The position numbers are program-made. A stretch of DNA of 64,000 bases from a bacterium (GTDB lineage: Bacteria; Oederibacteriota; CAKKQC01), in contig CAKKQC010000008.1 in assembly GCA_919901855.1 (NCBI GenBank), positions 91,616-155,615 of the forward strand, read 5' to 3'. Below, piece by piece: positions 55,401 to 64,000 of this stretch (position 1 is its first letter; every line of letters begins with the position of its first letter).

Positions 55401-58400
55401 CGCAGGGCCACGAGCTTATGCATATGAACCGCGGGAAGCGGAACGCGACCCCGATGAAAGGAGTCAAACTCCTCCAGGCCGACATCCGGGACCCCGGGGA
55501 GGAGGCCAGGCTCGCGCTGGGCCGGCTGGAGTTCGACGCCGTCGTCGACTGGATCGCGTTCACGCCCGAGCACGTGAGGAAGGACATCGAGCTGTTCGGC
55601 GGCCGGGCGGCCCAGTACGTGTTCATCAGTTCCGCGAGCGCGTACCAGAAGCCCCCGAAGCACTACGTCATCACCGAGGAAACCCCGCTCGAGAACCCGT
55701 TCTGGGAGTACTCGCGCCAGAAGGCGGCGTGCGAGAAGCTCCTGATGGAGACCTGGGCCGCGGCGAAGTTCCCGGCGACGATCGTGCGCCCCTCGCTCAC
55801 GTTCGGGAACCCCGTGATCCCGCTCGCGGTCTCGTGCTGGAACCGGCCCTGGACCATCGTGAAGCGGATCCGCGAGGGCCGCCCCCTGATCGTGCCCGGC
55901 GACGGCACCTCGCTGTGGCCCATCACGCACAACACGGACTTCGCCACCGGGCTCCAGGGGCTCCTGGGGAATCCGAAGACGCTCGGCGAGGCGTTCCACA
56001 TCACGACCGGCGAGGCCCTGACCTGGAACCAGATCTACGAGCGGACCGCCGAGGCCTGCGGAGCGAAGCTGAACGCCGTCCACATCTCGTCCGACTTCCT
56101 CACGGCCTTCGACCCGCACCTCGAGGGCAGCCTGCTCGGCGACAAGGCGCACACGACCGTCTTCGACAACTCCAAGCTCAAGCGGTTCGTCCCCGGCTGG
56201 GAGGCCAAGGTCCCCTACGCCGAGGGAGTCCGCCGGAGCGTCGCGTGGCTGTCGGCGGACCCCGCCCGGCAAGGACTCGACCCGGCCACCGAGGCGGCCT
56301 GGGACCGCATCATCGCCGCGCACGAGTCCGGAAAGGCCCTCGCCCGCCAAGCCTGACCCGCCCCCGGGCGCGAGTCAGGCCAGGCCCTGTGCCGGGCGCG
56401 GGAGGAGGGGAAAAGCAAAGGCGGGCAGGGACCGCCCATCGGCGGCCGGACGCGACTGTCTGCGCAACGCGCGCGCCACGGAGCACGCAGCGCTTCAGGC
56501 GAGGCCGGCCCGCTGCGAGGTGACTCGCCCCGCCCGCCTCGTCTACGTCAGTTGATCTGGATGCGGTAGCAGGCGCAGCCCGTGGTCTGGACCCCCGCCA
56601 TCGGCACCGTCCACCGCAGCCAGCGGGTCCCCGCCACCGGGTTCGCGCCCGTGAACGAGGCCGGCGGCGGCATCGCCGCGGACTGTTGCGTCGAGTACGC
56701 CACCGCCAGCGTGACGCCGTCCGTCGACCCGCAGTTGAAGGCCCCCATGGCCGCCTCCGGGATGAACGTCGTGCCCATCGGCACCGCGTCCGTGATCGTC
56801 AGGGCGAACCCCGAAGCCGAGGAGTAGTTGCTCCAGCAGACCTTGAACTGGACCGTGTCCGCCGACGCCGCGATCGCGAGCCGCGGCTCCTTATGGAGCC
56901 GGATGTCCGCGCCCACGACCAGGACCGCCGCCACGCCGCTCACCGACCCGTCGGACGTGTCCACCGCGACTATCGTCTGGAGGCCCAGCCGGTTCATGCT
57001 CACGTTCAGGAACAGCTTGACCCCGTTGTCGCAACCGGCCGTGCAGCCGGCCCCCTTGCACGTGGCCGCGGCGTCGTTCGAGTCCCAGACGTAGTTGAAC
57101 GAGTCCATCGGGATGCTCTCGATCTTGGCGGTCGCGTCGGTGGACGTGAACGAGGTCGTGCCGCAGTAGTCGGTCTCGGTGCCGCCCGCCGTCTGGACGA
57201 CGATCACCGTGATCCAGAAGGGCTGGCCCACGAACACGACCGACGGCATGACGATGTTGTAGTGCACGCCCTGGGCGACGAACGGGGCGGTGAAGATCTT
57301 CTGGTGCAGCGAGCAGATCTGCCACTGGGCCACCGCGACCGACCCGCCGGTCGACGTGACGTGCAGGCTGCGCACGAGGGGCGGCGCGGGCTCCGTCAGC
57401 GACATGAAAGTCACGCACTGGTCCGGGCCCGTCGTCGTGTAGACCGCCGAGTACCCGGTGTTGTCCGTAGCCTGGACCTTGGCCCCGGTCTTGGGCATGA
57501 AGAAGTCGACGAACGAGATCGCGAAGTAGGGCGCGGCGCAGATCTTGCCCGAGTGCCCGAACTCGGTCGAGGGCATCCAGTACGAGACCCCGGCAGGCGT
57601 GCCGGACGCCGAGTGGATGACGGAGCCGCCGCCGAACGAGTCGATCAGCCGGTAGCCGCTGAAGACCTCGATCGGCCCCCCCGCCTTGAGGTCGACCCGG
57701 TAGAAGTCCCGCTGGTCGGCGGCCCCGGTGTCGTAGTTCATCTGGTACGCGTGGGCGGTCCCGGCCGCCACCGTGTCGTTGCCCCGGCGCAGGGACCAGA
57801 TGCCGGAGTTGCCCACCAGGTTCGGGCTCTGGTGCTTGGTCGAGATCTGGGGGATGGTCGGGTTGTTCGACAGGTACTTGTAGATGTCGAACGTGGCGGC
57901 GGCGCCGAGGTTCTGGACGATGATCGTCCCGCCCCGGGCGACGTCCTTCTCGGCGAACGCGTAGAAGTGCGCGGGGGTGCCGGAGTTCACGAGGAAGCCG
58001 TTCTCCCGGTTCGGCGCGACGGTGGCCGTGTTCGGGTTCCCCGACAGCGGCAGGGCCTTGAAGATGATGAACGTCGAGTCGGAGGAGATGATCCGGTAGG
58101 CGTTCTGGACCGGCGGGAGGAAGAACCAGAGGCTCTCGGCGTCGACGTCCGCGGTCGTCACGTAGTCCCAGCTCAGCGTGGCCGTGTTCCAGTTGAAGGC
58201 GTGCAGCGTGGTCGGCACCGTCGTGGAGGTGTTCACGAAATAGAGCCCGTCCCGGTTCGTGGCCGCATCGCACGTCCGGACGTACGTGTAGCTGGTGTAG
58301 CCGTTGTAGGTCAGGCTCGTCGTGCCCACGTACGTGCTGACCTCGGCCCCGTTGTGGCTGTCGCCCGAGAGCAGCTCCCAGAGGAGGGGCGCGTTGGCGA

Positions 58401-61400: not shown

Positions 61401-64000
61401 CTGGCCGTGGCGCCCCCGACCTCGATCCCGTCGTTGAGGTTGCAGAACGACGTGCAGTTCTCGATCAGGACCCCGTCGCAACCTGAGTGCCCGCCAACCG
61501 AGATCCCGTGCCGCCCGGTGTCGAACGCGACGCAGTTCAGGATCCGGATCTCGCGGGGCCGCGGGGCGTCTTTGGACGCCCGCACCGCGATCCCGGATTC
61601 CTTGTACGCCGGATCGGACGTGGCCGCGACGTCCTGGATCGTCCAGTAGCTCTGATCGACGAGCCCGACCCCCGGCCGGTTCACGCCGTCGACTATCGGT
61701 CGCGCGCCCTCGCCGAAGGCCCCGATCGTGATGGGCCGCCCCGGCACCCCGCTCCCCTTGGGGGCGAGCCCCTGCATCCAGGTACCTCCCCGCTTGAGCA
61801 GGATGGCGTCGCCGGGCTTGAACGTGCGAGCATTCACGGGATCGAGCGTCCGCCACGCCGTCGCCGGCGTCTTCCCCTCCGCCGCGTCGTTCCCGCTCGT
61901 AGCATCCACGTGGTACGCCGTCCCCGTGATCAGGGGATCCGGCGCCCGCCAGTCCTTGCGCGCGCCGCAGGCGGAGAGGTTCCCGCGCGGGAACTCGATT
62001 CGCCCGCGCCCGGGATCGTCCGTCATGTCGAGCCCGTCGCCCTTGAGCGTAGCCGAATGGAAGAGCGTGAGCAGGATCTTCTCGACGGACACGTTCCCCG
62101 ACTCCCGCGTGAAACGAAGCACATGCTCGCCGGGCTCCTCGACGTGGACCTCGATCTTGAACCCCGGGAACCGGGTGTGGTTGACCCACGCGTGCTTCGC
62201 GTACGGCTGGACCAGGATCTCGCGGCGCTCGCTCATGAGGGGCTGGACGCCGTCCAGGTCCCAGGTCATGACCGCGGGCCACGGCCCCTCGGAGCTGACC
62301 TTGAGCCACGCGTACCAGACGCCGCGGGTGGGCAGGTTCACCTTGCGGACGAGCACGTTCTCGCTGTCGCGCTGCCGCCGCCGCCTGCGCCGCGACTGCT
62401 CGCGCGGCCCCGTCTTCGCCCCCGCCGTGTCCGCCACGAACGGCCCGCCCGCCAGCTCGATGTACCCCCGGCTCGATCCCTGCGCCATTCCGTCCTCCAT
62501 CCCGGCCGCGGCCAGCGATGCCGCCGCGAACCCGGCCAATATCGTGATCACCGCCACCTCCGGCTGTATGTCCTGGCGATTAGTGTACCCCCAAGACGAC
62601 GCCGCGGCGCCGGAGGCGTCGCGCGGCGGGTTCGTCATCGAACCCGGACGGACCTCCGGCGGGCCGGGAAGACGGTCACGGGGCCGAGAAGCCCGGACTC
62701 CAGCAGCGTGGAGCCGGCTCGCCAGTGCCGCCACGTCGTGAAGGTCAGCCGCCCGGCCGGGCTCGGCTTCCCCTCCCTGACCCAGTCCGGCCAGCGTTTC
62801 AGGTGGTCGCCGTCCCATTCACAGTCCTCGGGAAGCCGCGCGTCCCCGATCAGCCGGTTCGGCCACAGGTTCGTGACCCGGATCTCGATCAGGTTCCGGC
62901 CCGCCTGGGCGGCACCGGCGAGGTCCACCCGGTACGGTGCTTTCCACAGGACCCCGAGGTCGCGCCCGTTGACCGAGACTTCGGCCATGACCGCGACTTT
63001 CCCCAGGTCGAGCACGAGGTCGATCCCGGGTTGCACGAGGTCGGGGGCCAGGTCGAACGACGCCGTATAGGCCGCGGTCCCGGAGAAGTACCTGACCCCC
63101 GGGTCGGCGCTCTCCGGCCACGAGATCAGCTTCTCGAGCACGATTCTCTCCGGGGCGTTCCACCCCGCGGGGAATCGGACCTCCCACGGACCCGGGATCC
63201 CCACGGGCCCCGGCACCGGAGGCACCTCGACCCGCTGGGCCTTGCCCCCCGGGGTCCGGACCGAGTACCCGCCGGCCTCCCGTGCCACGATCTCGACTGA
63301 TCCGCCGGGGCCCGCCTCGACCCGCCACGCTGGCGGCCCGGCCGGCGCCGGGGCCTCCGGCGCGACGAGCGTCTCGTGCTCCCGCACGACGACCGTCCCC
63401 GCCGCGCCGCCGGCCTCGTACTCGACCCTCAGCCGCTTGAAATGGTAGGGCGCCGGGTCCCCGCCCAGCACGTCGTTCTCGGCCCGCACGACGAGGTACC
63501 CGTCCCGGATCATCTTCCGCAACGCCCCGGTCACGTCCGCCGCTCCCTTGCCGTCCTCGGCTTCGTAGACCGCGCGCCGGATCGCGACCGGAGGCGGCGG
63601 AGCCGCCGCCGCGTCCGGAACGACCAGGGCGGCGTGCTCCTCCCGCAACGGGGGCCGGCGGAAGACGACGAACACGGACTCCGCCGGTTCCAGCCGCAGG
63701 GGGACCGTGGTCCGCCCGTCCACGACGTCCCAGACCGGAGCCGGCCCCGTCGCCCCGGTCTCCGGGTACCACAGCTCCGGCATCCGGCCGGCCGTCCTGA
63801 AGGTCGCCGTCACCTCCGCGACCGCTTCGCGCTGGTTGGAGACGAAGTAGATGTCCGCGCCCGCCAGGGCCCGATGAATGTACGCGAGGCGCGCGCCCCG
63901 TCCCCGGTACTCGAAGTCGGGCGCCATCCCCATCCGGACGAAAACGGCCTCCAGCGGCCCGCCCCGGACCACCCAGCCCCTCCCCAGGGCATGCCCGGCG

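Follow-up and report, generated by a model that had tools for sequence, protein, structure and literature searches.

The right-hand end of a 64,000-nucleotide stretch of bacterial DNA (the whole stretch is referred to below as the window; assembly GCA_919901855.1, contig CAKKQC010000008.1, positions 91,616 to 155,615 of the forward strand) harbors three minus-strand genes running in the same direction. They encode the C-terminal part of a GH106 α-L-rhamnosidase, a PL9-like right-handed β-helix protein, and a giant secreted protein of 1244 residues (Table 1). The layout of the open reading frames (ORFs) confirms this arrangement, which was first described from the sequence alone (the sequence-only reading). 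Our analyses show that the giant gene is one of dozens of old paralogs, in a family restricted to Coatesbacteria-like groundwater bacteria. This lineage-restricted multigene family is the main feature of the locus, and it was missed by the sequence-only reading.

At least 205 clusters came out of a search for homologs, and the top 120 are all full-length proteins of ~1250 aa with 41 to 85% identity; several of these come from one Candidatus Coatesbacteria metagenome-assembled genome (MAG; locus tags AAB152_). A pattern scan combined with tblastn, which covered one genome per species for 185,579 species, gave 91 matches, all of them in four MAGs, one of which is Coatesbacteria. Full-length copies number at least 25, at least 16, at least 8, and at least 4 per genome, values that were obtained from 80 of the 91 matches and hence are lower bounds, and many fragments lie at contig ends. 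The copies often stand in tandem; the window holds one copy only. Within a genome, the best identity between paralogs is 55% at the median and ~60% at most, and for 15 of the 25 copies of one genome a more similar protein exists in another species, with identities of up to 78%. The window protein itself has homologs of 85, 80, 73, and 63% identity in other metagenomes, and the paralogs in its own genome are 42 to 48% identical to it. Judged by these identities, the paralogs are old and have been kept as orthologs across species. Literature searches on Coatesbacteria (RBG-13-66-14) gave MAG surveys and reviews only; judged by title and abstract, none of these describes the family.

Two start codons can be considered for the giant gene. 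The ATG at 60318, used in the ENA gene call, yields a protein of 1256 aa. The GTG at 60282 is the better start because the Shine–Dalgarno sequence GGAGGA lies 11 nt upstream of it, because it leaves a normal 26-residue signal peptide, and because it is the start chosen by NCBI. Neither start gives the 1240 aa of the sequence-only reading, and the ~30-nt gap that it placed after the β-helix stop codon holds for the ATG (31 nt) and widens to 67 nt for the likelier GTG. The 67-nt spacer contains a −10-like box, TACCAT, 40 nt before the GTG, which is a candidate promoter of the giant gene's own. TAnnnT boxes were present in 52 of 67 regions upstream of paralogs vs. 19% of random windows, a comparison of intergenic with mostly coding DNA that shows promoter-like upstream regions of the paralogs and nothing beyond that. 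A scan of the region for sigma-70 promoter and terminator patterns gave nothing above chance. The layout GAGGAG-N9-GTG recurs in two paralogs, L002_6137 and L083_10022. Three paralogs of one MAG (window 60282-60325; L002 ~6090-6140; L083 ~9960-10025) start with leaders that hardly differ, TA(c/t)(c/a)AT-(C)ATGrC(G)ACTGGGG...GAGGAG-N9-GTG, and that hold an in-frame ATG that is sometimes taken as the start by gene callers. This common sequence could be a shared promoter or leader, or the trace of gene conversion at the 5′ end.

The protein starts with the signal peptide recognized in the sequence-only reading, which is of the Sec type (MTHHKGGIARALALAALLALGTSGHA, followed by DC), and the cleavage consensus AxA↓D[CYG]IxDV is common to the family. 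With the 16 other genes of the window as the baseline, threonine (10.7 vs. 4.9%) and cysteine (2.4 vs. 1.1%) are each ~2.2-fold enriched, asparagine, tyrosine, and tryptophan are enriched as well, and arginine and glutamate are ~3-fold depleted; the predicted isoelectric point (pI) is 4.8. This agrees with the composition given by the sequence-only reading except for glycine, which is not enriched (10.4 vs. 9.5%). The cysteines number 30 rather than ~40, and the close pairs that had been described are present (CLC, CGC, CC, and the C-terminal GCAC); 12 of the 30 are invariant in the family. Pfam and NCBIfam searches and a motif scan detected no LPXTG motif, lipobox, C-terminal domain (CTD) of the type IX secretion system (T9SS), SLH domain, OmpA-like domain, or β-barrel domain.

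The sequence-only reading recognized no motif in the protein, but matches to Pfam DUF11/CLIPPER and to TIGR01451 are above threshold. The protein carries three DUF11/CLIPPER immunoglobulin (Ig) modules (D2, D3, and D9), which are not in tandem, and one generic Ig repeat (D8). D2 matched PF01345 with 42 bits (cut-off 24.6) and TIGR01451 with 35.4 (cut-off 24). In an hhalign self-comparison, D2 and D9 aligned with a probability of 85, and D2 and D3 showed a weak link. An alignment of 90 family members revealed conservation across the entire length. Column entropy and indels are highest in D4 to D7 and in D1, and lowest in D2, D3, D8, and D9; in this layout a conserved frame encloses a diversified center. 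D9 closes with the invariant motif GCxC[FY][RK][VI]x[VI][NQD]-COOH, whose final position is the last residue of every one of the 90 aligned proteins.

Table 1. Features at the right-hand end of the window (positions counted from its first nucleotide; residues are those of the giant protein)
Feature	Positions	Strand	Basis or remark
GH106 α-L-rhamnosidase gene, 3′ part	62635..64000, continues past window	(-)	frame open to window edge; profile matches
β-helix gene, 762 aa, PL9-like right-handed β-helix	60350..62638	(-)	profile matches
−10-like box TACCAT, candidate promoter	60317..60322	(-)	consensus match
Shine–Dalgarno GGAGGA	60293..60298	(-)	precedes GTG start
Giant gene, 1244 aa + stop, GTG start	56548..60282	(-)	identical to NCBI MEK7474913.1 / AAB152_04670 (= P0001)
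Signal peptide, residues 1-26	60205..60282	(-)	cleavage after GHA, read by eye; without lipobox
D1, Cys-rich β-sandwich, residues 27-209	59656..60204	(-)	variable among paralogs; no detectable relatives
D2, DUF11/CLIPPER Ig-like module, residues 210-344	59251..59655	(-)	profile matches above cut-off
D3, divergent DUF11-like module, residues 345-514	58741..59250	(-)	strongly conserved; homologous segment in P0135
D4-D7, family-specific core, stacked jelly-roll-like β domains, residues 515-1004	57271..58740	(-)	most variable, indel-rich
D8, generic bacterial Ig-like repeat, residues 1005-1089	57016..57270	(-)	profile search
D9, C-terminal DUF11-like module, residues 1090-1244	56551..57015	(-)	hhalign, alignment
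Terminator-like hairpin + T-run	56419..56438	(-)	110 nt past giant-gene stop; pattern match, not above chance count

CLIPPER modules are Ig domains of the CnaA-like type that characterize surface proteins and the stalks of adhesins; some of these modules carry an isopeptide bond (PMC12617251). D2 has a candidate isopeptide triad, K217 (84/90), D251 (88/90), and N331 (88/90), and D9 has the candidate positions K1131 (89/90), D1165 (90/90), and the final residue (N, Q, or D). The spacing from lysine to aspartate is 34, vs. 33 in PDB entry 9IFR. Searched against PDB sequences, the D2 module gave chance matches only, and no sequence alignment to 9IFR was obtained. These conserved candidate residues suggest that D2 and D9 may form isopeptide bonds. 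Repeats of the D8 type, ~50 aa long (...F.ItV.a.D..G.t..dY.GT..FTS.D..A...), occur in 5 to 33 copies in hundreds of unrelated giant proteins (for example P0155, P0157, and P0254); the repeat has no proper Pfam model, Pfam assigning it spurious SPATA48 matches, and it appears to be a widespread repeat that lacks one.

An AlphaFold2 model of residues 45 to 1244 had a mean predicted local distance difference test score (pLDDT) of 87 and a predicted template modeling score (pTM) of 0.79, and it is nearly pure β, with about nine domains. A pTM this high speaks for domains packed into a compact whole and against a loose string of separate domains. Modeled alone, residues 509 to 1094 (the core and D8) had a pLDDT of 89 and a pTM of 0.87. 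Against PDB structures, the core model gave a best E value of 6e-5 with template modeling (TM) scores of ≤0.26. These weak matches were to Cry1Ac protoxin, XepA, the discoidin C domains of factor VIII, PNGase F, allantoicase, botulinum HA70/HA3, and glycoside hydrolases (GHs) bearing carbohydrate-binding modules (CBMs), all of which are stacks of jelly-rolls or lectin-like sandwiches. Among viral structures (BFVD), tail and capsid jelly-roll proteins were found, again with TM scores of ≤0.26. No relative of the core was found in Pfam, PDB, or BFVD, and none of its structural matches is convincing. A search of PDB sequences with the whole protein gave 0 matches at E ≤ 1, and the whole chain matched multi-Ig proteins only in Foldseek (α-2-macroglobulin, complement, integrin legs, and PrgB), with TM scores of ≤0.16.

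A profile built from 586 residues at the center of the protein was compared with 1.84 billion representative proteins. Its first ~500 positions (D4 to D7) found the family and one other protein, P0135; positions ~503 to 556 correspond to the generic D8 repeat. P0135, a protein of 2024 aa, begins with a signal sequence, to which a D3-like module and the core are joined, and continues with ~10 DUF11/DUF7507 CLIPPER-type repeats and a FlgD-Ig/T9SS-like C-terminal tail. This is the layout of a fibrillar adhesin, and the core lies at the place expected of a binding head, near the N-terminal tip of the stalk.

The sequence-only reading had also proposed that the three genes form a dedicated operon in which the giant protein is co-expressed with a pectate-lyase-fold enzyme. 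The closest homologs, however, have wholly different neighbors. The 85% homolog is flanked by a small hypothetical gene and a CsgG gene, and two genes upstream of it stands a second paralog; the 80% homolog is surrounded by ThuA and GFO/IDH-type oxidoreductase genes; and the 63% homolog adjoins PhyH, AraC, and GH20 genes. When the β-helix and GH106 proteins were searched by tblastn against 85 related loci, one distant β-helix match was found (L078, 27% identity) and no others, and because of this result we rejected a conserved operon. The 762-aa neighbor of the homolog P0032, the same length as the β-helix protein of the window, is unrelated to it. As to co-expression, the giant gene has its own putative −10-like box and Shine–Dalgarno sequence in the spacer, as do most paralogs, and transcription of the window copy is probably independent, at least in part.

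To the other side of the spacer, the ATGA overlap between the GH106 stop and the β-helix start was found as described, at 62638-62635, and the ENA gene call gives the same 762-aa β-helix product. The upstream gene, called GH-like in the sequence-only reading, is indeed that of a glycoside hydrolase, a GH106 protein of 1024 aa; the window end cuts the gene and leaves its C-terminal 454 codons inside. This portion matches the C-terminal end of PF17132 and the rhamnosidase jelly-roll domain NF045579 (E = 1.8e-47); on the source contig, the complete product carries the annotation PF17132, and a URO-D-like gene lies directly upstream. The β-helix protein matches PF13229 (E = 1e-25). Its N terminus is a membrane anchor or a signal sequence, and it is locally similar to GH136 lacto-N-biosidase, in the N-terminal part of the latter. 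The identical ENA product is recorded with PF22842 (Pel9A-like), which bears out the pectate-lyase fold proposed earlier and specifies it as PL9-like. Past the giant gene, the hairpin is faced by a convergent epimerase gene that ends at 56356. Long ORFs that overlap the giant gene (56686-60600 (+), 1304 aa; 56891-60076 (-); 58736-59518 (+)) were rejected as high-GC shadow ORFs; the window has a GC content of ~70%, and the GC content at third codon positions (GC3) of the true minus frame is 0.97.

Across the family, 150 neighboring ORFs were clustered and then annotated with Pfam. Recurrent neighbors differ between subfamilies. AraC-type regulators lie within two genes of a family member in 9 loci. 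In 3 loci, which belong to two species, the stop codon of the family gene is overlapped by an ORF for a sugar-type ABC solute-binding protein fused to a permease. A heparinase II/III-like lyase is encoded directly downstream in 3 loci, Wzy_C membrane proteins (some with TPR) are encoded nearby in 4 loci, and GFO/IDH oxidoreductases in 3 loci, together with assorted GHs and sugar kinases or isomerases. No TonB-dependent transporter was found among the gene neighborhoods inspected. The colocalization with carbohydrate-active enzymes (CAZymes), regulators, and importers was seen for several subfamilies in the loci inspected and is not universal. The Wzy_C membrane proteins, several with TPR, and one TMEM260_N-like protein are at L083 13845-15593 and 4168-6111, L085 1195-3105, L043 4783-6924, and L055 5-2071. 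Wzy_C is also a domain of PglL-type O-oligosaccharyltransferases, and because these neighbors share that domain, the threonine-rich family proteins may be O-glycosylated. In two genomes, DUF6785/DUF6784 membrane proteins directly adjoin family members (L038 5253-7427; L059 5826-7577), and at L052 and L058 large spermine-synthase-like membrane proteins occupy the position held elsewhere by DUF6785/DUF6784 proteins.

We consider it moderately probable that the giant protein belongs to a diversified, nonenzymatic family of surface proteins that bind ligands or glycans. The giant gene would encode a Sec-exported, nonenzymatic binding protein of the cell surface or extracellular space, in which a frame of three DUF11/CLIPPER modules and one generic Ig repeat would hold the diversified, jelly-roll-like core of ~490 aa. 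The core and the variable N-terminal domain would constitute the ligand-recognition part, and the ligands would most likely be polysaccharides or other surface polymers. Each paralog would be individually transcribed and specialized for a different ligand, and many would be wired to their own AraC-type regulator, lyase or hydrolase, or sugar importer. The window copy may serve the adjoining GH106/PL9-like pair, of a pectin or rhamnogalacturonan type, and is not an obligatory part of that locus. In this respect the secreted adhesin-like or glycan-binding surface protein of the sequence-only reading fits the signal peptide, the CLIPPER/Ig modules, the all-β model, the lack of enzyme homology, and the core on the P0135 stalk; its dedicated operon does not.

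Several points weigh against a binding function at the surface. Pfam, NCBIfam, and structure searches found no known CBM, lectin, or adhesin domain, and binding is what we infer from the features above. Retention at the surface is putative, as no recognized anchor was found (lipobox, LPXTG, T9SS CTD, SLH, or β-barrel). An invariant polar cluster in D4 (N554, E601, R602, and K626) could equally be an active site. GHs or polysaccharide lyases (PLs) make up ~7 of 50 immediate neighbors vs. 1 of 43 other genes in the window, which is suggestive only, the genomes being rich in CAZymes overall, and several loci (L001 and L083) have no carbohydrate genes at all.

We regard as unlikely the alternative that the protein is a structural component of the envelope, an S-layer- or sheath-like coat, possibly O-glycosylated, with the paralogs as alternative coats. 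Its composition is typical of surface-layer proteins (rich in Thr, Ser, Asn, Gly, and Ala, very low in Arg, Lys, and Glu, pI 4.8), except that 2.4% cysteine is unusual for them. The model predicts a large, compact, all-β multidomain fold, and the strictly fixed C terminus with its invariant CxC motif could mediate intermolecular contacts; no SLH or other known anchoring or lattice domain was found with Pfam or NCBIfam. The Wzy_C(+TPR) and TMEM260-like proteins that adjoin family members in 4 loci are candidate O-glycosylation enzymes. A coat protein would not, however, need dozens of paralogs that diverged long ago and come with AraC regulators, lyases, and importers of their own, and in P0135 the core sits on a stalk in the manner of an adhesin head.

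A new family of carbohydrate-active enzymes appears decidedly unlikely. Here the D4 motif cluster FPLN...GCKxERxPA...K..SN.P..WE would be the active site, and the choice of substrate would lie with the variable domains. N554, C588, C598, E601, R602, and K626 of D4, and later D954, are invariant in all 90 sequences, and the carbohydrate-utilization neighborhoods are frequent, including positions directly beside lyases and GHs. Most invariant positions of the family are Gly, Pro, Trp, or Cys, though, which points to a structural role. Neither Pfam and NCBIfam nor PDB sequence and structure searches found an enzyme family or fold for the giant protein, and the matches of the core to PNGase F and allantoicase (TM ≤ 0.26) reflect the double jelly-roll shape only. 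Enzyme homology across most of the length, the one observation named beforehand as contradicting the sequence-only reading, was absent by sequence and by fold.

Nor do we find it at all probable that the paralogs form a variation system, as alternative surface antigens or phage-receptor decoys that are switched or recombined against phages or predators. There are many copies, often in tandem, and conserved flanks around a variable core are the layout that cassette recombination requires. Near-identical copies or cassettes are absent, however, within-genome identity reaching ~60% at most. The majority of copies in the best-sampled genome are closer to a relative in another species, all copies are of full length and have promoter-like regions of their own, many are accompanied by a dedicated regulator, and no invertase or recombinase recurs among the annotated neighbors. 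Finally, a protease trap akin to α-2-macroglobulin or TEP, for which the best whole-chain Foldseek matches speak (α-2-macroglobulin, CD109, complement C3/C4/C5, and TEP1, with TM scores of ≤0.16 and root mean square deviations of ~30 Å), is extremely improbable and can be taken as refuted, as a C[GA]EQ scan found no CGEQ thioester motif, the nearly helix-free model leaves no room for a helical thioester domain, and no A2M Pfam domains were detected.

The protein most resembles known DUF11/CLIPPER surface proteins, fibrillar adhesins such as Acinetobacter silvestris B9T28_05395 (PDB 9IFR; PMC12617251), in having a signal peptide, CLIPPER Ig modules, an all-β make-up, and Lys/Asp/Asn positions (in D2 and D9) that would be compatible with an isopeptide triad. 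A further link is P0135, which bears the same core on a true CLIPPER stalk. Unlike these adhesins, it has three divergent, nontandem CLIPPER modules in a compact globular assembly (pTM 0.79) with no long stalk, it has no recognized adhesive head domain or anchor, and its family counts dozens of paralogs per genome. With α-2-macroglobulin, complement, and integrin legs it shares a long chain of β-sandwiches packed in a defined assembly, but it differs in having no thioester motif, no helical thioester domain, and no sequence similarity to these proteins (TM ≤ 0.16).

In the polysaccharide utilization loci of Bacteroidota, SusE/SusF/SGBP-type proteins are secreted, noncatalytic multi-β-sandwich proteins with many diverged paralogs that adjoin GHs, lyases, regulators, and importers. 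The family of the giant protein is likewise secreted, built of multiple β-sandwiches, and rich in paralogs, with a variable part that may face the ligand and with GH, lyase, regulator, and importer neighbors. It differs in having no lipoprotein signal, no SusC/SusD partner in the contexts inspected, and no sequence or fold relationship to those proteins, in its size (~130 kDa) and CLIPPER modules, and in its partners, which are AraC regulators and ABC importers instead of TonB-dependent transporters. We tentatively put forward, as a possibility held with some doubt, that Coatesbacteria have a polysaccharide-utilization logic of their own: ~25 to 40 ancient CLIPPER-framed 130-kDa paralogs, with a multi-jelly-roll head not seen before, would be surface glycan-capturing specificity determinants, each paired with its own AraC regulator, a lyase or hydrolase, or an ABC importer, in an analogue of SusD/SGBP made from unrelated parts.

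Other genes of the window include an AcrB-type RND pump (7916-11101 (-)), a GH2 glycosidase (33299-35677 (-)), an adenylate/guanylate cyclase with TPR repeats (42948-45185 (-)), and a hybrid PAS histidine kinase-response regulator (52220-54397 (+)), which is encoded on the strand opposite to the giant gene, at a distance of three genes. An IS200-like Y1 transposase domain forms the N terminus of a 335-aa protein (49350-50357 (-)) that is unusually long for that family; its gene adjoins a 384-aa ORF without a Pfam match (48051-49205 (-)), and the pair may be a mobile or domesticated element. URO-D-like genes (window 39284-40369 (-); L086 935-2056; L002 18612-19697) repeatedly adjoin glycoside-hydrolase clusters in the host organism. 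Genes of the ADP-ribosylglycohydrolase family also recur (window 46714-48156 (+); L007 5982-7154; L086 19765-20799), once directly beside a family member, and are present in the host genome and in one related genome.

Coatesbacteria (GTDB RBG-13-66-14) is an uncultured candidate phylum known from MAGs only. The known part of the giant protein is its frame, which is of the DUF11/CLIPPER surface-protein kind. What is new is the predicted fold assembly of the core, the compactness of the architecture, the CxC motif at a fixed C terminus, and the extent to which the family has expanded within a candidate phylum. Because the best-sampled species genome holds at least 25 full-length copies, amounting to ~94 kb, the family is probably central to how its host bacteria meet their environment. 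For studies of structure and binding the ~490-aa core would be well suited, since its fold assembly is confidently predicted by the model and has no relatives. If the core binds glycans, the family would be a new class of carbohydrate-recognition module and a marker for the substrate range of Coatesbacteria genomes; if the family is structural, it would define the cell surface of the phylum.

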